This document shows, piece by piece, positions 8,770 to 28,300 of a DNA stretch of 64,000 nucleotides. The notes under the pieces are model-generated. The model was not told the DNA's origin. It ran no database searches and was given only the letters and a program-made list of their open reading frames with translations. This DNA is from Daphnia carinata (lineage: Eukaryota), in NCBI RefSeq assembly GCF_022539665.2, contig NC_081331.1, positions 7,068,001 to 7,132,000 on the forward strand, in the 5' to 3' direction. Within the stretch, counting starts at the first letter, position 1, and every line of letters begins with the position of its first letter. Made by a program: the position numbers and the translations under genes.

Positions 8770-10230
8770 TTCCTTTTGTCTAAATTTTAAATTCAATTTA
8801 AAGTACATGCTTTCGATTCAGAATTGTATGAAAATCATTGAAATCAAGTTTATTTTCCATTATTTTTACAGTTTTTGAACTAAACGTAAACAAACAATTT
8901 TAATGTTAATTTTATAACGGCTGTTTTAACGAGAAAACCAAAAACTTAATCGAAATCAGCATTCAATTTTGATTATGCCGTATGATTTATCATCGAATTC
9001 CAAGAGATTTCGTTTTTGGCCGATTTTGGTAAAAGTGGAAAGGCTATAGCCTTCTCACTTTTTCATTTTTGGCCAAATTTCAAATTTGGCTTAAAATACA
9101 TTATTTTGATTCAGAATTGAATGCTTATCACGAGAATCAAGTTTATTTTTCAACAGGTCTTATAGTTTTAAAATTATACGTCAAAAACGACAAGTCGGGC
9201 TTATTTTGTCGGTCGGGCTTAAAATTTATACCTGCAAAAATTGACATTCATTGGAATTGGTTGAATATCACAGAATATACTCAAACTTGAATACTGAATC
9301 CGGGAAAATTGTCCAATTTTTCATTAAGTCAACCGTTTTTGTAATACACCGAATATTTGTACTGGAAAAAACTAGCGCGCCAGTAAGCGACACCGCTAGC
9401 GCGATGTAGCACAAATTTTCGTTATATTCCAAAAACGGTTGGTTTAAGAAGAAAACCAATAACTGAATCGAAATCGGCGTTCAATTTGGATTATGCCTTG
9501 TGATTTTCTTCTAATTCCAAGAGATATCGTTTTTGGCCGATTTTGATAAAAGTGGGAAGGCTATAGCCTTCTCACTTTTTCATTTTTGGCCATATTTCAA
9601 ATTTGGCTTAAAATACATTATTTCGATTCAGAATTGAATGCTTGTCACGGAGATCAAGTTTATTTTTCAATAGGGCTTATAGTTTTAAAATTATACGTCA
9701 AAAACACAAGTCGGGCTTATTTTGTCGGTCGGGCAAATTTTGACGATAAGGATTCTGTCTAGATGAGTTGGTATAGACAGCACCGACCTCCTATCTTACA
9801 AAGTTTTCCTCAATAGATGGCGTTAGCTATAATAGAGATTCGACAAAGGTTTGAGGGGTGACAGTAGCGTTAAATAAATTAAAGAGAAATCTAATAACTT
9901 AATCGAAATCAACGTTCAATTCTGATTATGCCGCGTAATTATTGTCAAATTCCAAGAGATTTCGTTTTTGCCGCTTTTAACAGAAGTTGGGAGGCTATAC
10001 CCTTCCGATTTTTTTTGCTAAATTTTAAATTTTACTTAAAATAAATGATTTCGATTGAGAATTGATTGACAATCATGGAAATAAATTTTTATTTTTCGAT
10101 TGGCGTTATAGTTTTTAAATTAAATGTAAAAAAACCTAATATAACATTGAGGAACGAAAAGTACTTTGTTTATTTTGTTTTAAAAACGGCTGGTTTAACG
10201 AGGAAACCAACAGTTTCATCGAAGTCAGTG
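8770..10230. repeat. Interrupted direct-repeat array: ~270-300 bp unit in two close copies (8916-9218, 9434-9734), one diverged copy (~9893-10135) and partial copies at both ends
   Basis: Blocks AATCGAAATC-RYGTTCAAT-GATTATGCC, TTCCAAGAGATWTCGTTTTTG, GGCTATAGCCTTCTCACTTTTTCATTTTTGGCC and CAAGTCGGGCTTATTTTGTCGGTCGGGC recur in the same order. Confidence 0.9.
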
Positions 10231-11627
10231 TTCACTATAACAGTGTGTACTTTTTTTATCCAAGGCTATCGGGAACTTCGCGAACACAGTGAGCCTATGG
10301 GTAGAAGATCGAACCGCGAGCGCGAATGTCATCCTTTCCAAAACAGATCCGCCATCTAGTAGTAAACTCGAACCAGTTTCTTTCTTTTTATCTAAATAAA
10401 ATCCCTCTCGGGAAATTCGAATAATTATTGACTGAGACGAACCAATTTCATAGCTTTCGGTGAAATTAATTCTCCTGTTTTCCATGTATTTTTGGCATTA
10501 CAAAACCCACAAGAATTGAGTTTGCAGTTTTCTCTGCGAAATCTCATTTACATTGATAATAACAGTGCAACTACTATTATCTGCTGTGCGTAATGTTTGA
10601 TACTTTTTCGGGGAGCTCGTTTCCACCATGCAAGTTGAGGAACAGCTTTCCAAAGTAACCTTGGTGGTTTTTCGTTAAGCATTACTCGAGAGCTCTAAAG
10701 AATGGATTTTTATATTGCTATGAACGTCTACACGATACACTTCATGTTATCCTCATTATAGATTCCTCTGGGCAATTCGTTTCCTGTAATAGTTGTTCGA
10801 TAGGATTCTAATTATAGGTTGATCCCTCCCTGTTGCATAGCTGAAGTCAAAATACAGAAAGAAGCGAAATGACACCTTTTATAAGATAACAATACTTTAT
10901 ATAACTCTACCATCTGCACTCTTATCGCTGGTTGCAGACTCAGCCTTCAAATTCCGAATGTCACCTTGGTCCTTATTCAACTTGAAAAAACAAGAAAACC
11001 TTGGATTTACAGTAGGTATTCTTTCGATTGTTTGTTTTTCATTGTTATCAAGTTACTTAATTTGGTCTGGTGAGAACTAATTGTCTTGTGTAAGAAACTT
11101 CCATGCCAAATCCAGAGAAACGGTTCGGCTTGAACAAACGATTTCCGTCATGGTTCAAATGTCTTGGCAACTTGATCATTAGGAAAAGAAGCCGATTTAT
11201 TGCATCCTCTTGTAAAAAAATCTGAACGCAGGACACATCCGCCCACCGATAATTGCAATAAACGCATCGACGATATAAAGAACTAATCCCAAAGATTCAG
11301 TCAACGATGATTCGAAAAAGGAAAATGGTTGAAAAAAAAGACAGAAAGTTCACACAAAAAAAAACTAAAAACGAGAAGTTGAATGCAGCTTATAAAAATA
11401 TCGTCAATTGGAAGAATTCAACTCAAATTGAACGCTATGTGCACTTATGGCGCAATGCAGTTCTGGAAGAAAAATAGATCTGGTCACATTCCGATTGTTT
11501 CCGAACCTGATAAAAATTTGAATGGGACATTCTCTACATGGATCATTATTATTTTTATAAGCCCCTTCATAGGTATGATATGAAATAGAATTTGAATGTT
11601 CAGTGTTAGGCGGCGTCCGAGGCCCGA

Positions 11628-11726
11628 CTAAACCAAGGTATCTTCAGAAGCCTCTGCCACGGCGGCTCGCAGATCTTCATAAGGCCCTGTATTGGTGGAA
11701 GTGGTTGAGTCGGGGCGTGCTAGTCA
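11628..11726 (-). other. Candidate stop-codon readthrough extension of Inx1 (X-LARPDSTTSTNTGPYEDLRAAVAEASEDTLV*)
   Basis: TGA (11726-11724) followed by CTAG, then 31 sense codons to TAG at 11630-11628; a 3' stem can form; ends in a PDZ-ligand-like TLV. Confidence 0.62.
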
Positions 11727-13523
11727 CGCGTTGTTACTTTCATTTGTCTCGACCTTCTTGGACAATTCTGAGACTACTTCTCGATACACTAAGGGTTCTA
11801 GATTGCGTCCCAGCATGTAGAGGATCCACCAGTCACCGACCTCCAATTTGCTTGTGATTCCATCAATAACCTGAATATTTGTAATATAAATTACAGCATT
11901 AGTTATGGTGCCTACATGTTACAAAGTTCAAAATTTATAAACCTCAGACGGAACAAAGCGATTGCGGGCGTGGAGAATCAATGGCCTAACACGAGGAACT
12001 GCTAACAAGATGGCTCTAAAATTAGCGGATAAATGGTAACCAAATGAACATACCACAATTCAAACAATAATTAGATGTACCTGTAGACGACCAGCAATGA
12101 GAGGAGAGTTGCCATAATGATGAACCAAAACCACAAAAAGATGTACGTTTTTTCGTTGATAATGTTTTGGGATAGAACGCACATAGAGTCATGTCGGCTA
12201 ATGGTACCGGACGAACCGAATTTATGGAACGTGCACTTGGTAACCCGTGGGAAGACATAAACCATAGGGTCAAAACGGTCTTCTTGATCAGCATTGGCGA
12301 ATGATAGAACTACAGGGAATTAACATTGAAAGTTATTTTCACTTTGAATAAGCGTTTGTGGCTAATTGTGATTACTAACCTTTAAGACCGTACGAAAAGA
12401 ATTCGCCACCAGTAAAGCGATTCATCAGATAAAGTTGACCGATGACATTTACAAGACAGAGTACTTCACAAAACCAGTAGCGAATAGCGTACATGTTGTG
12501 TTGCTTGAAGTGAAGCAAAAGATAGTCGATCAAAATTCTTTTCTTGACCGTGCGCTCTTCAACCGTCTTCAAGCCAGAGTTCAAGCCCAGGACAATGGTT
12601 TGCATCAAACCACCTAACAAGAGAAATATTATCAGTTTAAATGAAACCTCATCTATTATGATTTTAAAATATATGTGTATGTTATTGAAATTGTTGAAAT
12701 AGTATATCCTACCTTCCCAAGCACTCCAGAGCCATCTAGGGACGTAGCACAAAATGGCCTGGAAAAACAGAATGAAGCAAACCCATTGGTAGTAGGCGTA
12801 GTGTTTCTGATCTTTGCTGTCGTGCAGTCCAGCACCGAGACCTATGACGTAAACAGAACCACAAGTCTATAAACCAAATATTTTTCATTTCTCACACGGT
12901 CATCTGTTTTAATCAATTTATTTATTTTAAAAATTAGCTAGTTAACTTTGAAAAAATACAAAAATCCTATGTCCTACTATAACTATTTTACATATAGTTG
13001 AAGCTTGTACTAGTTTTGGTTCAGATTAAATACTCCCCCTTCCCAAATTTAACTTATTTTTGCTAAATAAGCGTCGAGGCATCCAGTTACAAACTGTTAT
13101 TTCTTGTCTATGAAAACACTGCACTATGCTTAAAAAATTGGCTCTAGTTTGCGATTTATTTTTTTACCTGGGTGAGGAACTTCACTTCCGACCGACCTCA
13201 TAAATGAAGACGGAATGGTAAAAGTAGTAGAGATCCAGCAGTATGTATTGATAACATGGATAGGAATATCATTATCGTTGATGCATTGAATCGGGTTGCC
13301 TACGTACTGCAAATCAATTCAAACGTTACAGACATGTTTCAGTTAAAATGCATTCTGGGCAATCGTGTTAAGCAAAGGTGTGTACCTGGGTGGCCGTCAC
13401 AAGCAATGAAAAGGCAATCAACAAGACGGTGGTGAAAATATAATGGAGTCGAAAGACCACGTTATCCGTCACAATCTCCTGTCGCCGGAAATATTCCTTC
13501 AATCCCGCTAATATGTTATACAT
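11724..13523 (-). CDS. ogre: Innexin 1 (ogre orthologue); 7 exons: 13523-13386, 13306-13168, 12841-12713, 12613-12380, 12309-12081, 12015-11943, 11870-11724
   Basis: MYNILAGLKEYFRRQEIVTDNVVFRLH...TATQ|YVGNPIQC...NTYCWISTTF...YYQWVCFILFFQA...DPMVYVFPRVTKCTFHKFG...EVGDWWILYMLGRNLEPLVYREVVSELSKKVETNESNNA* parallels insect Inx1/ogre. Confidence 0.92.
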
Positions 13524-16500
13524 GGCGGAGTCGGAAAGTTATCGACGATCTGCTAACAATAATGAAAAAAATTTGAATGCACAAGCCATACATACGATTT
13601 ACGCTGTATATGGTAGAAGCAACTGAAACTAGTTCTGTGATTACAGCTAATGAATTGCAATAAATTAGAATAAGAGAATTGTTGTTGAAAGAAACGAGTT
13701 TAACCAACTTGAGCCAATAGCTCGAATCCATAAATTATATGTAAAAAGAAACACGGTGTTATGTTAAACATCGCCGTCCTGTTCTGTGCATAGGGCTTAT
13801 TTTTTGCGAGTTTCGAGTTACCTCTAAGGAAAACAAACGAAAAAGCAACAGGAAGTTCCCGACAATAGACCACTAACCCCACCTGTGACGCAGATAAAAG
13901 ATGCTCATGGCAGAAGGGTACAAATATTTACCGTGCGTCGATATCACCAATGGAAAAAAAACGGCAGCAGGAAGCAGCTAGGCCTAATCTGATACGAAGC
14001 TGGTGAATCCTTCCTTGAGTAATTGTGGAACTGCGACAGCCGACGGGAATGTATCACAAAAGAATGTGATACCAGTACGTTACGCAGAGCTACGGCGAGC
14101 AAGCCGGACTTTGGCTGACTGAGCCGCCACCGACTAGCGACGGCTTCACGTTCCACAAAACCAAGGACTGTTGATGAGCGCCACTTGCGGTATGCACATC
14201 AACTACGTCATACAGAAGGAGAAATTGAGCCTTCAATGGAGGCAAGAAAAATTCTTTTTTAAATAGCGCTAGCTGAATATTTTAATTTTTTTCGAATTTA
14301 TTCATTGAGCCAGGTTCCCTTATTGGGAGAAGTGAACTAAATGATCATTTTAATAGATGTTGACATCGGCAAGAATGGCTCAGGTATTCAATGAATATTG
14401 TTTGATAAACCCGCAAAATCAGTTCCCTATGAGTTGTGGCAAATAAATACAAAACTTTTGGGCTTCGATTTGGCAGAGTGCTTTCCAAATACTGGTAGAA
14501 ATTCTGAGAAGATTGATAAATTTAGAGAAAAAGGGAGGATAAAGAAGAAAAATCGTCATCCACCCTCTTTGGCGTACGTGGCGGAACGTGCTGTGCCCTC
14601 CAGGAAAAACAACCATTTCCTTTTATTTCCCTAACACTAGATAAAATCATTTACATTTTTCGAAAAGCTTTCTAATTTTTTTCCAACCCTTTTATTACAT
14701 ACGAAGTGGTAAACTGAAACGAAGTAAAATATAAAAAAAAAGACGGTGTCACTGACGCAATTCGTTCATGTGTTAAAAATTCATCTTAAATTAATTTATT
14801 ATATGCTATATCATACTGTGAAAAGAAAACACGTTACTAACAGAAATTCTTCTTGAGGCCTTGGTATATGCAACAATTTAAGGGCCGAGTCAAAATTCTT
14901 GGAACTATTGAAAGAAGATGCGTGGACTTGAAGAAAGATATCGTCGGCTGTTCTATGCCCTTAGGGGAAAAGCTTCTTGTCTGTGTACACTCCACTACAG
15001 GTCGATGGCCTCCTTTTTCTTTCTTCCCTCCTCCAGAGACATCCTCTTTTTCATATCTAGTCAGCCTCTTCTTGAGTATTTGTCTTCTTTCGTTACATAG
15101 ATCCCACCGCTAGTTGGCACTAGCTTCCAAGTCACTGTCCCAGACAGTCTTCTAGCCTCCGACTGGGGTAGAAAAGTGTTCCGTGGCCAAACAAAATGAA
15201 AGCTGAGGGGAGGTAAAGTTGAAAGTCACCTTGGTCTGGTGGTAAGCCAGCCAACACAACACAAAGATAAAGACGAAATTCCAATATCCCTGGGCTTTTG
15301 TTTGCTCGCGTCCCGTACTTACTAGCAACGACGAGAACTAACCAAGCCATGTAACGGGATATGACTTCAAGTTATTAATAAGGAAAACTTACTATATACA
15401 CGTTGGGCGATTCGTACTCAACGGAATGAGAACGAGAGGTTTTAATAAACGAATTACAATGTTACATGAAACGCGTTGTGTAAACCGTTAACACCGTTTT
15501 CCAATTCAACGTGCTGTACGCGACTCAAACAGCAATGCTTGAATCAAATTAAAATTTCTAGGCACGATGAAAACATCATGCTCGTTTATTTATTCAACAG
15601 CTCTTAAAATTCATAGTCAGGCACCATCTCTCCCTGCGGAATCCTTTGTTTGTCGGTTGCGTGAGAAAAATGGGGAATCACTGAAACCCAGCTAAAATGC
15701 AGACCAAATTGTTGCAAAAAATGGTGACACTGTTCTTTGTTTCACGTCATAAGTATTTCATAACCGTTTCGGAATAATATCCTCGTTCGGTATCCAACTG
15801 CCTGTAATGTATCCATGCTTGCTAAATAGCTGCAAATTAGTGAGTCACTACCTGTGCTATGTTGACTGTGCAATTAGAATCACGTGGCATTTAATACGAG
15901 ACGTGATAACTCCGAAAGTTCCCCTTTCTGTTTCAAGAATTGCAGACCCAACTAATGAAATAAAGATCAAGTGACGTTTTTATGGGCTTAAGAGAGTAAC
16001 AGCGTTAATATTTCAATTAATAACGAATATCAAACGCCCCTACCGAAGACACTGTGCTACGCACAAATGGTAAACCGAAACACATCCAGTTTTACTCCAA
16101 CAAAATGAAACAGCAATGCAGTCTTCGCGTTATGTAAAATGTTATTGTTACTAGATTTGATTTTACCACGTTTTGTCCTTCCCGAAATTCATTAGTTGCC
16201 AAAAATACTTTCCATTTGTAGTTGCCCCAAAACTTTTAAACAAATACCAGGAGGGAAATGTGAGCATTTCCAATGTTAATTGGATTTCCTTTTATTACTA
16301 ATTCCCACGGCTTATTCAGGGAACGAATTTTACCTTGACACGATTCCAACTCCATCTGAAAACTAAGACTTAACGTAAAGTAATGAAAGAAAACTGAAAA
16401 GACACAAGTTTTAAGGGAAGCACAAAGAAGTGGCTTTCGATATGTTCTACATAATTTCTCGGCCGGTCAGAAAACAAAACTTTGATCCATCGTCAATCCA

Positions 16501-19483
16501 ACGGAAAATGAATAAAGAAAACTCATGGAAATTGAATATAACGGTAAACGGGACGATGAATTTTGTATGTAGGTGCTACGTACAGAATAATTATTTATCA
16601 TGGAGAATTAGCAATCCTGTCCAATCGGTTGAAAAGTCAAAACAAGTTGTCTGCTTCGAAATGCATTGTTCGGAAAATCACATAGCTGAAATCCGATTGG
16701 AGAAAAAAAGAAAGGTTTTAGACATACTCATTAAATTGCAATCACGATTTTCATGAGAAGAAGTAATGAAACGAAACTTTCAGACGATCTTCTACAATTT
16801 CCTTTCTCTCGTACCATCGTTATCGGCTTTCACATCAATGAGTTTTCTAATAATCGAACACATAAAATTGACAACTGTGTAGAACGTTAAAACTCACCAA
16901 GTTGTACTGCAGTAGAAATTCGATTACGCTTTATCCCAAAGTTTTAACATTTTAATAAGGTAAAACTGAAATTTTTCTGTCGCTCACCCATCACAAAGGA
17001 ACGTTCAACCTTTTCGTGATACAAGCATTTTATTTTTTCATCGTTTCAGCATTATGTATTGGAAAAGTTAAGACTGACTATAGCCTTCAGACCCACGTGC
17101 TGTATTCAATGTTGTACCTTTTAAACTTGGACGCTTTCTCTTGTATGTAGTTCACGACTTCACGCTGCATGCCTTCTTTTTGTTTCGGTGAAACGGGTTC
17201 GGCAACAAACGCACCTTTTGGGCGAGAATTGTGCAGAGTCACCTATGTGAATAGACCGTCTACAAAAAACGAACGCCCAAGGGTCAAAGAAAAGAGAGGC
17301 TTATGCAACCTAGGGTTCATTAAACTAGGTTTTAGTTACCTGCCAGCTAAGTCTATTGCCAGGCGGGTTCGATCTTATCATTCGTTGAAATTATTTGACG
17401 AATGCTTTTAATGACTGGTATTCTATTCAAAATAGAGAAATCTGTTCCACTGTAACTGACAACCAACTAGTCTACCGTAATTACTCGCGAAATGGAGAAA
17501 CGATAATAAGTAATTGATTATGGTTTCAATTGCAGCGTCGAAAACGCTTGTAGAAACAACAAATGTGGAAATTTCTAAACAAGGCACCCGTAAGATAATC
17601 GTATCCGTAAGATAATGAAACTGCTAGCCACTAGTAGGTTCGTTTTTACTACTATAGATAAATTTAAAGATATGGTGCGAGCACGACACGTTCGCCATTT
17701 GATTCTAAATCATAAAATCGAAATTTGCATCCGTTTTCAAGCCATTTAGTTTTTATTTGTTTGGTAATTAAAACATTTGAATTTCACCACCAATAGGTTT
17801 CTATTTAAAGAATTAACTCTTAATCAAGGGAAATGAATTGAATTATTTAATAAAGCGATTTTTATTGCGCAACCGGACGTTCTGTTCGTGCAAAAATTTG
17901 ACAATGCGCTCTTGTCATTTAGCTGAATTCCCTCATGAAAGTTCCATCCTGTCTGGCTTAGCTATTAAAGGAGAAGCAAGGGCCTCAATAAGTTATACCG
18001 TTAGACTGTAAATAGCTTTGTGAGTACTGAATACGTGTGTGCGCATTGGAACGGTTGGTATCAATTTATTTTATCGGCAAGTCGGTCAGGTCGGCGGGAC
18101 CAAGAAAACGAAACTGTAATACAGTATGATGGATCGATTTAAAAAGAAACTAAACGCCGTTTCCTTTGAAGCCAATCAACCAGTTTTACCCAAAAAATCG
18201 TCGTGAACTAAAAACCAGTTACAAATAGGTGTGGTCATTGTGGCTCGGTAAAAAAATATTGGGGTTAAAATAAAGCCCTTGATAACGAATTCTACCCATG
18301 TAACTATCTGTCCCCTGAGCTAAAAAGGAGAATGTTTATCACAACTATCGTTTGAATAACGAGTTTTCTGTTTGAAAATTTCAGTTCGAGATGCATAATT
18401 ATCGTAAAATAGCATGAAAGCAGTGGCGTCGTTGCATATCTTTAAAACTAAAAATATAACAATTATTCAAAAAAAGAAAACGCATAAGGCTAACGAATTT
18501 AAGTTTCATGAACATTAGTTTGCGGAGGAGGCATTAGGCTAAATGGGGATGCATCTGTCAACTGTAAGACCGGAATGCGGATAAAGTATTCTTTCAACGA
18601 ACCGTACGCAGATGGGCTTTTCACGCAATGATAGGTACCTCTAAAAGTAGCTCAAATTGTCGTTCCCCAGTTGTACACGTGCGTGCTGTTGCCCTCTTCA
18701 TTACATTTATGGAGAGGCACAGTATTTCGGAGAGACGTGACGTCGTTTACTTCCGCCAACCTTTTGTTGGAAATACTCTGCACTGACGTCATGTTTAAAA
18801 CTCATGCCTGGAATTCGTTTGCATATGGGCTGAAAAACGTTTGCTTTCAGACAAATATCCGTCCTTGTTTTTCCGTTTCCAAAGGCCTTTTTTTTGTGAA
18901 AAATGTTTGATATTCAGTCACAATTTTTCCTTGTTAAAACTGAATTGGACTTTTCCTCTTTAACCGGCTCCAAACCATTGTCAATCAAAGTGACGGATGT
19001 TGGCACTTGAAACGCTTCTCAAGAGGACCATTTTTTCCGCGTCATCGATATGCAGAACTAATCTTAACTTAGGAGGTCATCCAAACTTGTGTACCTCTCT
19101 CATTACGGTCACGAGCCAAACCCAGAAGACATAAAAAACGATTTGCTTTTTTACTAAAATTGTTTATTGTGTATAAGAAAAATAAAAATTAAAAAACGCG
19201 TTACCACACACATAGTTGACCAGGGTTGGTCTTTGCAAGAGAATAAGAAAAATGTCGCACAAAATAAGTCCATGTGAATTGGTATTGTTCATTCAGTATT
19301 GTACGCAGTGACTTGAATTCGTTCGTTGACTAAACCACTCAAGTCTCAAAGACTGGAAAATGTTTTTATTTTAAAATGAAAACTATGAGCTCTAATACGA
19401 GAGACCATGATGAAAGAGCTCACGGTACCCAAAAAATCTTGATTAGAAAAAGAAATCGGTGGAATAAAAAAAATATATGTGAT

Positions 19484-20916
19484 TTAAAAATTTTTTGAAT
19501 CAGCCCTCATCATTGGAGTGGATTCGCTTATATGCCCGGGATGTCCTCTGCCGTATTCGAGTGCTTTGGCCAATTTACCGACAACGTTAGAGAAAACCAT
19601 CGTGTCCATGTTCTTTGACAAGAAATCGACGAGGAGCCAATCACCGATGGAGCAGCGTTGTGTTATGACGTCAGCATCGTCCTTCTGAGGCGCTGAAAGG
19701 CGGCTCCGCAAAAGAAACATTCTCACGGGCGGCATCATGACGATAATAACTCGAACAAGGAAATCGATGCCGGTGATGATGGCCAATATAATGAACCAAA
19801 ACCAGAGGAAAGTATAGATTTTTTCATTTATAATATTCAAGGCCAATATGCAAAGGGCGTCGTGTCTCTGAATTGTACCTGCGTTGCAGAACGTGATTAT
19901 CATATATGATGACTCGACCGGAAGTATATGCAACATTGACGCAATACATACGATAGGTAAATTCAAGATTGGTGGTAACAATTATTTCTTACCGGAAGAT
20001 CCGAATTTGTGAAAGACGCATTTCGTGAGCCGGGGAAACACGCGAGCCATGGGGTCAATACGGGTTTCCGGATCTTGGTCCAAAAATTGCACCACTTCGA
20101 TGCCATAACGCATAAATTCGCCACCAAGAAAGCGGTTGGTCAGAAAGATTTGACCAATGACGTTTATCTGAATAGATTATCCATATCTCTTAGCGCTATG
20201 TTTCGTCAAGGTAGTTATCTTATTATGGCCATGCATAAACTCGTCGGATTGCGAACTGACAAAAACAATTCTTACCAAATTCAAAAGTTCGCATGAAAAA
20301 TAGCGAATGGCCCATCCGTTGTGTTCGTGAAGATTGCTGACAATGTATCCGGTCAATATTTCTTCTTTTTCGTCTCGGACTTCGGCTTTCTCCTTGATAG
20401 TGAAGATGTGCATGCCCTGAATTATGCTACGAACTTTGGAACCTTCCCACATCTTCCAGAGATAGTAGGGCGTGTAGAACATCAGTGCTTGGCCGAACAG
20501 GACAAACGGTACCCTACAGTTTCACGAAATCATTGACGTAGTTACCACAGAAAAATACATAATAGAAACCAGACTTACCATTGATAATATGCGTGATACG
20601 TGACATCGTCTTCTTCAGTGTAAGGACCCAATCCAAAAAGACTAATTTCTCCTTTTGCTATTGGCGTTGTACGAGGAATGGAGAACGTAGAAGATATAAA
20701 GCAATAATTGTTGAGGATTTTAATGGGCACAGCTACTGCATCTTGTATGCATTGAATGTGCTCGCCGATATATTGTCGCGACGTGACCAATATTGAGCAA
20801 GTCAGCAAGATGAGGAACGTTAGTCGATAATGCAATGCGAAGACTGGCGAGGTGATTTTGACCGACGTCGTCTTCAGCTTGACGGCAGCCTTCAATTTGG
20901 AAAACGTCCCCAACAT
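19484..20916 (-). CDS. Inx7: Innexin 7-like; 4 exons: 20916-20579, 20513-20276, 20167-19993, 19878-19484
   Basis: MLGTFSKLK...LHYRLTF...SRQYIGEHIQC...YHAYYQWVPFVLFGQAL...TNRFLGGEF...HDALCILALNIINEKIY. SRQYIGEHIQC and QWVPFVLF resemble Drosophila Inx7. The innexin call is firm; the orthology is less so. Confidence 0.82.
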
Positions 20917-23900
20917 TTCCTGCTTTGTTGAACAACAATATAGTCACTGTAAATCAAATAACTATTCTAAACGAGCAAACGTGCAGAATTTTTCTAGCAA
21001 TAGGCAACAAAATTCACACTGCAGACGACATCCGTTGTCACAACGTCGGAAATAATGAATCACCTTTTCCTAGGTGGCGTAAGTACAGAAGGTAATCGTC
21101 GAGATCAGAAAACCGAGAAAATGTACTCGGAAGCGTGGAGAAAACACTGGAGTGTACAAAGTAGAGCCAACACTTTGACTGTTGGGTGCTGCAGCCACGC
21201 CATGTTCGACTGGGTGATGAATGCCCTTCTTTTCTTTCCACCCCCATCTGGTTCTCCCATAACGTCCATCGTCCACAAACATTTTAATTTGTCCTTGCCG
21301 ATATTAAAGGAATTAAGCAATTATTTCGCTATCCCACAAAATGAGCTTTAATCTATGCTTGTTGATTTATAGTACTCATTTCTCTGTTGCGTCATCAGAT
21401 CTTAATTTTCTCCGATCTCAAATGAATTTCCTAACTGAGTCAAATAGTAGCTGGTTGCGATCCTCTTTCAGTAGCTACCATGTCTTTGTTGGATTTTCCT
21501 ATACACTTAAAGCGATGGGAAATGCGTTGCCGGGAACTGCCAGACCCGGGCCTTCAAATCACCCCCTCGGTTAGTCTCCTCCCCCTCCCTTTCTCTCTCT
21601 CTTTCTCTGTTTCTCCATTCCATGCGTCTCATCTTTCCTCTCTTTTCCCCTCGTTCGCGTTTTTCCTAACATTTGGTCAATCTTACCCAGACAGACATTC
21701 TCCATTTTCTCTGTTTCGAATGCTTTTAATTTTAATACGCAGTTTCAACCGTTACAACGTGTTCGACACCCGACATTTTTTTTTTGTTGAATTTGAGGCC
21801 TGGAAGGTGTCACAGTAATAAACATATTCGTGACAGGCAAGTTGGACATTCTCGAGTTTAACTGTTATATGGCTTTGAACAAGTTATTAAGATATAAAGA
21901 TATATATTTTTTTAATTTCCCAGCCAAAGTCTAAAAATCAAAAGTTGAAGAATTTCCAGGATGTTTTTCATTGACTAAATGAAACATTTTAAGGATAACC
22001 TCCTTTAATCGACCTCATCAACTGCCCGGACGTTGCCTAGTAAAAAACGAACGTTGGACTGCATCACCCCATGGTATTACGTACACATAAAAAACTTCTC
22101 AAGGTTCGCATATTGGAAATTCGATTCGTCGAAACCAAAAACTTTAATTTTCCGGCTGTTGCTCAATGATAAGAATGTTCTTCAGTTCGAGGAACACTCT
22201 TGGCCGAGATGACTACATAATTACCCGCAAGTTATGTACACATATTTTTTTTTTCGTATTTAGAAAGCATCGGGGTCGTCACCCAATACACACTGATCGA
22301 TCCATCAAGGTGTAGTCGAGCTCTTTTTTGAAAAATTTAAGACAGAGAAATGACTCGGTAGAATAGAGTGAAAGTTTCTTATTTTTTTTTTACCTTAAGG
22401 TGGTAAGTGTTTGCCGACGGGAAAAAGAAAATAAGATTCCAACTTGAAAATACGTTTCTTTGACTGTGCCCAGACTTTAGACGACTGGAATCACTTTAGA
22501 TATGTAAAATGATGGGCGTAGTTTTTATTTTTTGCCCCAGAGAAGTGTTATCTTATCTTCTTTTTCTGTTCGTGTCTTAAATATATATCTTCCAGTTTCT
22601 TATGTTTCTCTGCCAATCAGCGTAGCGTTTACCTCCCCCCCACATGGAAATGGAGGTTATCCGAGAACGGACAGAATGGAGGGGAAAACATTTGAAAAAT
22701 ACATCTGTATTTTACCCCTCAAGGGTGTCATTCACCCTCCCAGCTGTTTCGGCAAAATACGTTCTGAAAAAAAAAATGAGGGGAGATGGGTGTCTACGTG
22801 CTTAAGTAGGGGGTTGAAAACAAGGTCACGGCCTTGTCCGGCTAGCAACTGCATCCTCCCTCAATGTAAAAATCACAAAGGAAATGCAGTTTAACATCCA
22901 CTTGGACCAATTGTTTCTGCTGCCGAGGTCATTTAGCCACGACTGTTTGTTTTTACGTTTGGTCAAGATACTATACTACTTACACAGCATTTATTTTTTT
23001 AGCAATGCCTCGTGGTCCAATCGGGACTTATCAGGTGTTTCTTAATTACAATGATCTCTTGAGCTACACCTCTGTTCTTATCCGTTTCCTATGACGTACA
23101 GCTTGTTATAACGAACCTTTAAAAATTGTACCGTTGCGACACTCATGTTGATATGCCACGTAAAATGTCTAACCGTAAATCAACAATGGAAATCTTTAAA
23201 TATGTTTTATCTCTCGTCGTTTTATGTTTGTAGTCTAACTGAAACCCAGAGTTGGAAACGTGTTACAATACAAATTCACTGTATTTTGCCGCCCACGTTC
23301 ATCGAATCGAGACACGCAATTTTTGTATAAAAAATAATCAAAGGAAAGAGAACACACACACCAGAAAAAAAGAGTCTTAAAAAATCACACGCAGAGAAGA
23401 ATTTCTTCTCCGTGAATAAAAAAAAAACAATCGTGTAAACAAAATATGCATTTCCGATTCTGGAGCTTCATGGAAAGTTTTTTTTGACAAGCTTGCAGAG
23501 AAGTAGAGAATAATCAAACAGAAACGGATCAAACAAAAGGAGAAAATAAACTGTCACCCTAAAAAAATGTGGTGGAAAGAATATTGCCAAGAAAATTAGA
23601 AGGTGATAGAAAAAAACGTATGCAAATCTAGACTTGGAAATCCGGAAGAAATGGAAAAAGAAGACTATTTCGGGGACTACACACCTGTGAGATGAAACTC
23701 ATACACTACCAAAAAAATCCTAATCAACTCATATGGAGAATAGCAAAAAAAAATTTTTTTTTTCAAGAAAAACCGTCGGTGTACTTTTTCAGTCCCTGCT
23801 TAAAGTATATTCGTCAACAAACAAATCATTCCCCACGAAAAAAAAAAGAAATATCTACTGAAAGGCATATAAGTAGAATACCAGAACGCGCAAATACATG

Positions 23901-24238
23901 TACGAGGGGAGAACGGTGAGCCCCGCCCGATATCAATTGCAAAATGGTGTTATTAATTACCGGCATGGAAGACTGATTGATTTCATTGGTCCCAAAACTT
24001 GTATCCTCAGTTTGGTCTTTATTCTATCTTGAGCGTTCTCTAGATGGGTGTTTTTTTTGTTTTTGTTAGATGAGTGGGCGAAAATGTAGGGGAAAAAAAT
24101 CTAATCAAATTTGCTGGGAAAAAGAGATGAGGGGGGGAATAAAAAAAAAGATCGCTAGATAACATTGGCTGCAGACAACTCTTGTGAGTTGTGATCAAGC
24201 TGAAAGGAGTCCCACCAATGGCGTCTTGAATATGCTGG

Positions 24239-25385
24239 TTAGACTGGTTCCTTGCCTTCGAATCGGCGGGCCAGATCGCAGATGAGTTCTTTGTAGACAA
24301 GAGGGTCAATGTTCTTGCCGAGGAGAAGGAGAACAAACCAGTCGCCGATCTGGCATTTGCGGGCGACCAATTCGACTTCGCTGCGCGGTGCCAATCGGGC
24401 TTGGGCTCTCAACAGGTACATCCGTGCTTGGGAGCCCAAGACGACGGCCAAGCGGTACAGTAGCGCCAAACCGGTCACCACCGCCAACAAGATGAACCAG
24501 AACCAGAGGAACACGTAAATTTTCTCGTTGACGATGTTCAGGGGGAGAACGCACAGGCCGTCGATACGCGTCGTCGTACCGGAGGGACCGAATTTGTGGA
24601 ACGTGCATTTAGTTACTTTAGGGAACACCTAAACAATAAAAAAATGATTTAAATATAAGCACAAAAGATTACACTTAAATCTCTTTTTTTTTTACTTTGG
24701 CCATGGGGTCAATACGATCTTCTGGTTCCATTTCGGTCATGCTGATAACATCTCGACCGTAGGTGGTGAACTCTCCGCCAAGGAAGAAATCGACGAAATA
24801 AATCTGACCGATGACGTTGATAAAGTTGAGCACCTCGCAGATAAAGAATCGGATAGCGTAGAAATTGTGATTGTGCAAGTTGGTAGCAAAGTAGTCGACC
24901 AAAAGCTTCTTGCGTTCGTTTTTCGTGTCTTCGGCGATGATTGGGCAGTTGAGGTCGAGCACGAGCATCTTCATCTTACCGGCCTCCCAAGTCTTCCACA
25001 GGTAGCGGGGAATGTAGAAGAGAAGGGCCTGGAAGAAGAGAACGAAGCAGACCCACTGGTAGTATTTGTGGTATCGGATGGTGTCGCCGTCTTCCTGTGG
25101 ACGAACTCCAGGATGTGGAACATGTTTTCCAACAACTTCGGAGGCCATCCGATTGGGAATCGTGAATGTAGAATGGATCCAGCAGTACGTGTCCATAACA
25201 TTGCCCGGCACGCCTTCAACGATGCAGTCAATGGGGTCGCCAATATACTGGCGCGATGTCACCACCAGTGAGAAGGCAATCAACACAATAACCGTCGCTT
25301 TGTAGTGAAGACGGAAAATGTTGTTGTCGATGTTAACAGAATCGAGCTTCAGCAAGCCCTTCACCGATCCGAAGACGTCAAACAT
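24239..25385 (-). CDS. Inx2: Innexin 2; 2 exons: 25385-24696, 24628-24239
   Basis: MFDVFGSVKGLLKLDSVNIDNNIFRLHYKATV...SRQYIGDPIDC...YHKYYQWVCFVLFFQA...DPMAK|VFPKVTKCTFHKFGPSG...CQIGDWFVL...RFEGKEPV* is a typical Inx2. Confidence 0.96.
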
Positions 25386-28300
25386 TTTCGACGACTTGGT
25401 GGTGTCTTTGTTTCAAAAAAAAAAAATGTAACTATGCCTTTACAATCGGAAAACAAAAGGTGGCGGAATGAGGTTTTCACGCCACAGCAATTCACTCGTA
25501 CGCGTCCACCGCAGATGAAGACGCGCCCAGAATTTCACTCGATTTAAACGACGTGTCTGATGGACGACGAGCAACGTACACGCGAACCGACACTGCCTAC
25601 AGCTCAGCTCAGTCTGACAACGATGGCACAGTAAAGCGATTATTCGCCGGTAGAGGCGCTTTTTACCCTGAGGTTGTCTGCAGGGAGACACGGAAATAAA
25701 GTCTCGCCACGGGTAGAATGAAAAGTCACGTGATCTTGAATTTTACGTACCAAGTCCTATCCCCCTCCTCTGGGACAGATGGCGTCTGTGCAACCACCTA
25801 TTCTGTGGGACTTTCCGAACGAAGCGTCAGATCATGGGTTTTCTTTTTCCATCTGGATTGACGCAAGACTGTGGCAACCGTAACCTATGCAAATGAAGAA
25901 ACGACAGAAATAGGGACGAACCCAAAACATACCTGTTGTTTTTATTTATTTATGTTGGTTTCTAGACGGTATTACCCTATTTGGAAGGCTCGTATCAAAA
26001 GATGGTTCAAACCCTTGAAAAACGAGAAACCGCCATCTTGGCTCTCATTCTGTTTCCTTTTTTTATTTTCATTATCGTTCTCCATCGAACGTGACGAAAC
26101 CTATAAGATTCCCACGTTTTCTATTCTTTGAAGGCTCACGCGGTTGAAATTGTTGGAAACATAAGTACGGTCTTGAGTCGTTAATATAGGTATTCTTTTT
26201 AGACGAAGCCACCACTCAGCGCAAACAAAGAAGAATATTTCGAATTGCCAGTCTTCGTCTTTCACCCCAATAGTTCTTACGAAACTTACAATAACTAATT
26301 TTGAAACCATAAAAGGAGATTGTCGTAGAACAAGGCCAACCTCAACCACGTCAGTGTAATACAACATTTCGTGGTTGATTCACCGTCATTGGGTTTCCTG
26401 CGATGGCAAAATAATAAATAAATCCCTCGAATGCAATCCTTATTAAGTGTGACGGGAACTGATCTTGGCTTTGACTACTTTTTTTTTTATACTGATAAAC
26501 TGTAACTTAATCCGAATTTCCCTAAAAGTAAAAAAATAAATCTCGAATGGCGCCAACGTACAGACATGGAAAGCTGAAACACCGTGCAAGAAAAACCTGT
26601 CGCAAGAAAACGAGTTTTTTTCCAGTTGATTGTTAACGTTGCGGGCGAGTCCACAGGCAGGGCCGGGCTTTTCCCGCTAGTATAATGTTTTAAATACTCC
26701 AATGGCCTCGGGGTTGTTAAACAGCAAGAAGCTGGTGAATTCCTCCAGACACCTGCCGACCATTGACTCTGCAATGTTTGAATGTGAAGTAAATCATGGC
26801 ATAAATGCAACCGTGGGTACATGGTGGCTTGTGTTGCACGTTGCATCACTGTTAAACTAGGACAGAGATCCAAAGTGAAAGAAACCAACCGAGGGATGAA
26901 AGAGGGAAAAAAAGGTGCAACGGTCACACAATCCTATGGCATACGTACATAGCCTGAGGCTTTTAGTCTCAGCCCCTCGAATTCTCCCCTCGAGGCCGCC
27001 CTCGTAAACAAATGGGAAGCAGACGCGCATTCCCTAGCATCTGCTGTAAAGTTGGTCACACCATAGAATATTTAGAAGTATAAAACGATGAGGTTGTCGT
27101 GGCGTTTAAAGCCATCTTCTTCTCTAGCTTTTTCTACAGGTGAGATCATGATTATATCAAGGTTATTCGTTTCGTTCCGTGGAAAATGGTCGACCCCCCT
27201 GGTATACGTTAGAAACCCAGCCCATGCTCAGTCTAGTAGATGATGATAGTTCAGCAAAGAAGAATTCTCCACTGACAGGACTCATCTATCAAACGTAAAA
27301 AAACAAAAAGCAAGGCAGAGAATGTTAATTTCCTTTTAAAGCTTGACTCGCGAGGGAAGGAAACTTGGTTTTTTGAGGTCTGTTGGTACAAAACCTGGGT
27401 GTGACAGGGCTTTAGCTTAGCCCCCCATCTCTATGCGCTCATTCGCCTATTTTTGTTTTTTGTCTGTAGTTGAGAAAATGCAGATTTCTGTATTATTCTT
27501 TTTCGGTAATGCTGCTCAAAAGCAGAAAAGGCGATTGAATCCCTTTTTTGCTGTTGAAAAAAAAAACGGCTTTAGAAAAAAACTGTCGATTCACCATGAC
27601 CCCTTTGTGAAAGTGGATTCCAAATCGAACTTGTCGTAATAAGGACTTTTTAAATTTATTTAAGCGTTAGAGCTTTTGTACGATGTCAAAGGAGCTTTTT
27701 AAATATCAAAGAACAAAAGAATTAAAAAGAATATGCATGCCTAAACGCCATCTAGGTACAAATTTATGCACTTTCAACACTGAAATCCAAGATAAGTAAC
27801 AGCAATCACAAGGACCTGAGAAAGAAAATCTTCGCAAGGCGAAATTTTGAATTCAATTTAATAAATCGGGAAAAAAAGCAAGCTGTCGGCATAAAATTCA
27901 TAAAATACTATCATGATTCGCTTTGATTTGTATGTCGTGGGAGCGTTTCGACTTCGTGACCAAGCTGAATTCGTGCTTGCCAAGTGATAGACAAATAATA
28001 TCACGACTTTTCTCAACCCCTTGTATTAGGGCAAGAAGAAAGTTCATGGCTCATTTCCATTAACGCAATCTCATCTCGTAGTGCTTTTCAAGGAAGTTGA
28101 ACAGGGTTGTCCCCGTTCCGCTTCGTCTTTAAGTAATGGTTTAAATCCACCTGTTATTTTGCCTTTAACTTTAGCATTGAAAAAAATAGTACGAACTTCA
28201 AATGAAGCTATAACCCGCAAATATAAAATATTCGTATCCTTAAATCGTAAAAGTCGTACGTTGTTCCGAATTTTCACCTAATCCCTATTTCATACCGATG

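Follow-up and report, generated by a model that had tools for sequence, protein, structure and literature searches.

A gap-junction gene in Daphnia carinata raises the question of whether its stop codon always ends translation. The gene lies on the minus strand of the window, by which we mean the whole 64,000-nucleotide stretch of DNA analysed; the codons of its last exon run as ...ESNNA up to position 11727, a TGA follows, the next four nucleotides are CTAG (11723-11720, minus strand), and the frame then stays open. From these features the initial annotation had proposed a programmed readthrough of innexin-1 (ogre) at UGA-CUAG, giving a tail that ends in a PDZ ligand. It had named the conservation of the stop context, a synonymous bias, frame-preserving indels and a terminal [ST]xV in orthologues as tests of the proposal, and alternative splicing among the outcomes that would refute it. 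On the minus strand we found the end of the reading frame, the TGA and the CTAG at the same coordinates. The downstream frame was likewise recovered as 31 GC-richer codons closed by a TAG, with a GC content of 0.56; the value is 0.45 for the last coding exon and falls to 0.39 over the 100 nt that follow the extension. The tail had been described as 32 aa long, which is correct if the residue inserted at the UGA is counted; the encoded sense codons are 31. The features of the gene and of its end are as follows.

11727..13523, minus strand: coding region of innexin-1 (ogre orthologue), 7 exons, 362 aa
13523-13386, 13306-13168, 12841-12713, 12613-12380, 12309-12081, 12015-11943 and 11870-11727, minus strand: the innexin-1 exons
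11724..11726, minus strand: first stop TGA, the predicted readthrough site, TGA in 7/7 cladoceran-type loci
11713..11728, minus strand: invariant 16-nt stop context CG-TGA-CTAGCACGCCC, which includes the CUAG motif, in the window and in loci L001-L006 and L033
11631..11723, minus strand: predicted readthrough extension of 31 codons, LARPDSTTSTNTGPYEDLRAAVAEASEDTLV, with synonymous bias and in-frame lengths
11628..11630, minus strand: second stop, TAG in the window and five loci, TGA in L001 and TAA in L006, always after Val
11196..11201, minus strand: likely poly(A) signal AATAAA, from the sequence and the L004 contig

The seven exons encode a product identical at 362/362 positions to the protein P0039, annotated as Daphnia carinata inx1-like, on which the Pfam domain Innexin (PF00876) was found with an E value of 7.8e-120. 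All six introns are GT..AG, there is no internal stop, and contigs from public runs lack the last two introns. The identity to the D. pulex, D. galeata, D. magna and D. sinensis records was 337-352/362, and in a tree the protein was placed with the named Daphnia inx1 and the Artemia inx1-like proteins (support 100/98). The full innexin domain and the tree placement identify the gene as the innexin-1 (ogre) orthologue. All named Daphnia inx1 records examined are 362 aa long and end in -NNA, and a conserved second isoform would therefore be missing from those annotations. At the other end of the transcript, the intronless contig L004 stops 5 nt past a hexamer matching AATAAA. Three innexin genes lie in tandem on one strand (window 11727-25412, minus strand), in the order of an Inx2-like gene (about 25380-24239), a third innexin (about 20920-19484), which we take to be Inx7-like, and Inx1; the stop of both neighbours is TAA.

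Within the window alone, the features of the extension are just partly unusual. Stop-free windows of 31 codons made up 23% of those in the 1 kb downstream, CTAG follows 5 of the 2,365 TGA triplets on both strands of the 64-kb window, and [ST]xV stands at the end of 0.8% of 3,319 random short stop-free segments. It is the conservation in relatives that takes the extension beyond chance.

To this end we consider the distant relatives first. A metagenome scan gave 53 loci, 37 of which had an inx1-type end and were kept; the other 16 (L038-L053) were set aside, being different innexins, matches cut by introns, or not innexins at all. TGA-CTAG was found in seven of the 37 (L001-L006 and L033) and was absent from the other 30, four of which have TAG-CTG and 26 other contexts without a common tail that passed a test. 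L001, L004 and L006 formed a clade with the named Daphnia inx1 (97/95), with Artemia outside; the tree covered these three and not L002, L003, L005 or L033, and we infer that all seven are cladoceran. The 16 nt around the stop were unchanged in the window and in 7/7 of these loci. Over the 30 codons upstream, 14 of the 15 pairs had a pS of 0.7-1.1, the exception being L003/L004 with 0.05; most pairs are hence close to saturation at these silent sites, yet the stop context is invariant. The pN/pS of the extension relative to the window was 0 in L003 and L004, 0.10 in L033, 0.26 in L006 and 0.41 in L001, and in gap-free blocks of six sequences the variation was distributed as 4/3/15 by codon position (p 0.0009). 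The extensions differ in length by -6, +6 and +33 nt, that is by whole codons only. L002 is the same as the window across the extension; it is thus not independent and adds nothing. Around this region (L002:1501-1900) the near-identity to the window starts midway through the last exon and continues for about 75 nt beyond the second stop, whereas over most of the gene the identity is about 79%, so that L002 may have been assembled as a chimera. In L033 an additional intron interrupts what is the last exon of the window (L033:200-235), with the readthrough context and both arms of the stem described below kept. A separate group of termite-like loci (L012-L019) shares an 8-codon frame after TGA-G; it was rejected as a readthrough candidate because of missense changes in the five examined and the loss of the frame in L012.

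Close relatives were represented by eight public runs out of 24 listed, the main contigs of which were about 85-95% alike to the window. The runs share a V-to-I change seen in D. galeata, which implies that they are close to one lineage and not independent. The changed codons of the extension were synonymous in X1 (9/9), X18 (9/9) and X22 (8/8), all of them at third positions. For X1 against the window the expected synonymous fraction was 0.30 (p about 2e-5 for 9/9), and when the same changes were read in either of the other frames, 9/9 were non-synonymous. When the runs were considered together with L003 and L004 as Daphnia-like sequences, all 12 variable positions of the extension (12/12) were third codon positions. 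The first indel in the runs was a 1-nt loss at 11608, which is 20 nt beyond the second stop. The libraries of runs X18 and X22 are recorded as RNA, and their contigs lacked the last two introns and were unbroken from 11452 to 11867, with no joint. More generally, the spliced or intronless contigs X1, X18, X22, L001, L004 and L006 were continuous through both stops. No change at the first stop was seen in four runs, nor among the rows listed for the four others; no joints were seen in four runs, and those listed in the other four were the annotated introns only, it being a property of assembled contigs that rare forms and variants are dropped, so that rare splicing or editing can be missed. These observations bear directly on the tests named at the outset. 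The UGA-CUAG was shared by the orthologues, the synonymous bias appeared in our own codon-position counts, the indels preserved the frame as far as the second stop, [ST]xV ended most of the distinct tails, and no alternative splice was seen in the listed joints of the RNA contigs. Programmed UGA-CUAG readthrough is thus strongly supported by the conserved context, the synonymous bias, the in-frame indels and the conserved second stop, that is by sequence comparison.

Protein records widened the range of tails. A profile search gave eight proteins, three of which cover the tail, and 14 other members of the main cluster (n=21) were among those listed. Among these matches are entries of D. magna, D. 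pulex and D. galeata type that carry the same 31-aa tail; three more types of tail also came from them. Five of the seven tails are known from contigs, three of these (P0113, P0125 and P0131) as predicted proteins only. P0111-P0113 and P0119-P0133 have W at the position of the stop, most likely a product of gene callers reading TGA as Trp, and we therefore took these proteins as evidence for the DNA only.

A leaky-type stop followed by a protein-like, conserved frame suggests that ribosomes are likely to read through it sometimes, and functional readthrough of the innexin-1 UGA-CUAG appears very probable to us. Directly observed are the context, the coding-type conservation, a second stop that is likewise conserved, and a spliced RNA that continues across both stops. 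The best explanation of the whole, to which we would give a probability of roughly 0.8, is that a conserved UGA-CUAG and 28-42 codons under protein-level selection are used by readthrough to add a tail predicted to dock on a PDZ scaffold. According to this reading, CUAG would give a near-cognate tRNA a chance against the release factor, and in Daphnia a 12-bp stem, beginning 9 nt after the UGA and closing over the second stop, would probably help CUAG. In the extended subunit a flexible linker of Ser, Thr and Asn would be joined by P-Y-[DE]-[DE]-L with its short helix, and [ST]-x-V would be left free at the end. Such subunits would co-assemble with short ones, and consequently the place of whole channels, or their turnover, could depend on an isoform that is in the minority.

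The predicted stem consists of two separated arms.

11702..11714, minus strand: 5' arm of the predicted long-range stem, starting 9 nt after the UGA, pair probabilities 0.7-1.0
11623..11635, minus strand: 3' arm of the predicted stem, which spans the final Val codon, the second stop and 5 UTR nucleotides; disrupted for the most part in L001 and L006

The arms would form 7+5 bp (11714-11702 with 11635-11623) around a loop of 66 nt. Pair probabilities were 0.7-1.0 in the window, in L002-L005 and in L033, in which the loop is longer. The variable fourfold sites numbered 0/3 in the spacer, 0/4 in the arms and 11/15 in the loop (p 0.018 for the arms compared to the loop). The duplex energy in the window, L003, L004 and L033 was -20.9 to -22.9 kcal/mol, which differed from synonymous recoding at p 0.005-0.028 and was borderline against plain shuffles (p 0.045-0.09); against synonymous recoding, L001 (p 0.11) and L006 (p 0.60) were not significant. 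Folding z-scores for the whole region (-1.4 to +0.8) were also not significant, and a local hairpin within the 60 nt that follow the stop was not supported either (z -1.1 to +1.7). In the pair counts 81.9% of the cells were paired and 3/12 pairs had a two-sided change, while many pairs were broken in L001 and L006; L033 has two changes in the arms, with wobble pairs kept. The 12-bp stem is thus likely in Daphnia and unproven beyond it, with modest support in part of the group. Apart from this stem, the invariant stop sequence can fold a 5-bp hairpin straddling the UGA (window 11716-11730, minus strand), which could not persist with the stop inside the ribosome.

A stem after a spacer of 8-12 nt raises readthrough up to 10-fold (PMC3159437), and spacing-dependent stems promote readthrough of the fly dfr gene (PMC13170385). 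The alphavirus cassette, UGA-C(UA) with a 3' stem, resembles the innexin-1 end in its 8-12 nt spacer (9 in innexin-1) and its stem of 10-12 bp (12 predicted in innexin-1), as well as in the silent-site conservation of two separated arms with a variable loop between them (PMC3159437). In contrast to the viral case, innexin-1 is cellular, its predicted loop measures 66 nt, the 3' arm lies over the second stop, and the stem is predicted in the Daphnia-like sequences and L033 only. The Daphnia end would combine a vertebrate-type CUAG motif and a virus-type long-range stem, the latter predicted, in one compact cassette.

What the tail would do is less certain than the readthrough that would make it. 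The class I PDZ ligand consensus is a C-terminal [ST]-x-hydrophobic, and YxxPhi is a loose tyrosine-based consensus; each has a counterpart in the extension.

11631..11642, minus strand: C-terminal D-T-L-V, class I PDZ-ligand-like
11670..11684, minus strand: P-Y-E-D-L, a conserved tyrosine motif that fits YxxPhi, at the start of a predicted short helix

The seven distinct tails are 28-42 aa long and have L-A-R-P, P-Y-[DE]-[DE]-L, A-A-V and the final V in common; the P, Y and L and the A-A-V are invariant in ten aligned rows, which hold these seven tails. The tails end in DTLV (three tail types), DTSV, HSTV, SSAV and EKLV, so that Val is last in 7/7 and [ST]xV in 6/7, the exception being the -EKLV of L006, without S/T at -2. 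Position -1 varies (L, S, T, A), and Thr and Ser are exchanged at -2. There was no Pfam match to the extension, and a low-confidence model (pLDDT 67, pTM 0.28) placed a coil after the stop and a helix at E42-D54. Since the terminal Val codon is inside the predicted stem, the Val may be held at the RNA level. The -2 residue is outside the stem, which together with its switching between Thr and Ser favours protein-level selection. The chances that PDZ binding is the selected function of the tail appear about even. The PDZ-ligand end had been the centre of the initial account of the tail; it is plausible, with [ST]xV in six of the seven tails, but is qualified by L006 and by the position of the Val codon, and that account had overlooked both the P-Y-[DE]-[DE]-L motif, present in 7/7 tails, and the predicted stem.

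It is possible, though we consider it the less probable reading, that readthrough is real and the selected function resides in P-Y-[DE]-[DE]-L and the helix, as a sorting or phosphorylation site or an intramolecular contact, with the PDZ-like end secondary. The motif is more constant than [ST]xV (7/7 vs 6/7 tails), its order is kept amid flanking indels, the helix is predicted right after it, and the terminal Val could owe its constancy to the stem in which its codon sits. However, the -2 position lies outside the stem and is still S/T in six of seven tails with changing neighbours, YxxPhi is loose and the structural model is of low confidence. Moreover, the two functions are not exclusive.

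A different view, in which selection acts on an untranslated RNA element and the resemblance to coding sequence is a by-product, could explain why silent sites of the extension are more conserved than those upstream (pS 0.27 vs 0.93, window vs L003), why a stem is predicted, and why the 3' UTR is fairly conserved among the Daphnia-like sequences. However, such an element does not predict that 12/12 changes fall at third positions, that indels are in-frame only until just past the second stop, or that the second stop switches among TAG, TGA and TAA. This frame-specific pattern makes an RNA-only element insufficient, and we regard it as very improbable.

Recoding of the UGA by other means, either A-to-I editing to a Trp codon or selenocysteine insertion, seems about as improbable. 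A 5-bp hairpin is possible across the stop and rare editing would not show in contigs, but the A of the UGA lies in the loop of that hairpin, and no change was listed at 11724 in the RNA or guessed-RNA runs. For selenocysteine, Rfam gave no SECIS match over 9500-12100 at E up to 5, and a SECIS-like core with a stable helix was found by a crude pattern in 0/8 sequences.

We consider it least likely of all that the extension is reached by alternative splicing, with the AG of CTAG as a 3' splice site: CTAG does end in YAG, the phase-1 donors of introns 2-4 would enter the extension frame, and joints are known among those listed in contigs that drop rare forms, but there is no polypyrimidine tract before CTAG, no phase-1 GT donor at least 45 nt upstream in the last exon is common to the six sequences tested, the joints listed are the annotated introns with none in four further runs, the upstream donors would presumably remove transmembrane segments, and the invariant TGA would be left unexplained. 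A separate small ORF in the extension and an antisense ORF over it were rejected, the former since there is no Met and the conservation begins at the stop, the latter since the antisense frames are interrupted by stops.

Having set out these alternatives, we return to readthrough of the UGA-CUAG and its precedents. It is in mammalian cells and viruses that CUAG is established as active, and its role in Daphnia would be analogous. In reporters UGA-CUAG drives readthrough, which is efficient in AQP4, OPRL1, OPRK1 and MAPK10 and about 3.5% in MDH1 (PMC4132726), in agreement with the precedents of vertebrate AQP4 and MDH1 invoked in the initial annotation; lactate dehydrogenase readthrough is also the subject of PMC4359377. 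AQP4, OPRL1, OPRK1, MAPK10 and MDH1 are like innexin-1 in having the same stop and tetranucleotide, clade-wide conservation and coding signatures in the extension. They differ in that the protein and the extension are unrelated and the efficiency has been measured, whereas the crustacean innexin-1 case is known from sequence. AQP4ex lengthens the subunit of an oligomeric channel by 29 aa and is required for end-foot anchoring; the SSV end of canonical AQP4 is the named PDZ ligand, direct binding to syntrophin being not yet shown there (PMC6444679). The parallel to AQP4ex drawn at the outset needs care: it may hold for anchoring by an extended channel subunit but not for the PDZ ligand, which in AQP4 is on the short form, while the PDZ-like end of innexin-1 is on the long form only. 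If the tail binds a PDZ scaffold, it would provide a route for anchoring innexins; the word PDZ is absent from the connexin/innexin review PMC5412853.

Readthrough is abundant in Drosophila and Anopheles and, by a genome-level estimate, in D. pulex (PMC5100048), and the innexin-1 case belongs to the same class of event with the same kind of evidence. Readthrough is known to be abundant in Pancrustacea, and its occurrence in a pancrustacean is unsurprising; the innexin tail with its two motifs would be a new and well-supported case of a known mechanism. The 687-row table of that paper (A. gambiae and D. melanogaster) had 0 matches to ogre, innexin, inx, shakB and zpg, while the controls kel and hdc were found, and no gene-level readthrough list for Daphnia was seen in the parts of it consulted. 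The present locus thus offers a gene-level, testable case of what, in the literature consulted, had previously been just estimated for Daphnia. A 2026 Ribo-seq atlas preprint includes at least two fly innexins as candidates: Inx3, with TGA and a 33-nt extension, in tier 2, and ogre, with TAG and an 18-nt extension, in tier 3 and flagged as not conserved, tiers 3-4 being negative sets (PMC13278127). Neither Inx3 nor ogre is named in the main text of that preprint as consulted. These are innexin-family readthrough candidates like the cladoceran innexin-1, but compared to the latter fly ogre has a different stop, a far shorter extension without conservation, and a negative-set tier. The initial remark that readthrough had not been described for innexins was therefore slightly too wide. 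It stands for the cladoceran tail, of which we found no report in the literature covered, most subscription papers and several supplements being outside it. The terms ogre, innexin and PDZ were absent from the main text of bioRxiv 10.64898/2026.07.13.738141, and the supplement text of Dunn 2013 (8,584 characters) gave 0 matches, to which little weight can be given.

A broader and doubtful proposition is that stop-codon readthrough serves repeatedly as a switch by which gap-junction subunits of invertebrates acquire a tail for anchoring or sorting, with at least two origins on crustacean-type innexin-1, the cladoceran UGA-CUAG tail with its PDZ-ligand end and an unrelated Lys/Leu-rich tail after UAG-CUG (L007-L009 and L011), and that it may also act on Inx2. 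Were this so, the location of entire gap-junction plaques would depend on a small and tunable proportion of long subunits, and the design of AQP4ex would have been reached by convergence. The second, unrelated innexin-1 candidate is seen at L007:655-726 and in L008, L009 and L011, where TAG-CTG is followed by 21-22 codons (for example LLANQRELKRKLKALKLKQRVY in L007) and a second stop that is TAG or TGA. Its variable columns were 3/5/11 by codon position (p 0.024) with a pN/pS of 0.11-0.53; in the tree the group lies near two ostracods (95/92), and all four contigs bear one dataset prefix. In the window itself, the end of the neighbouring Inx2-like gene (24241-24155, minus strand) reads -EPV, then TAA-C and 27 open codons (24238-24158), PAYSRRHWWDSFQLDHNSQELSAANVI. 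The GC content of this 27-codon frame is 0.47, compared to 0.33 after it, and the frame could be another readthrough.
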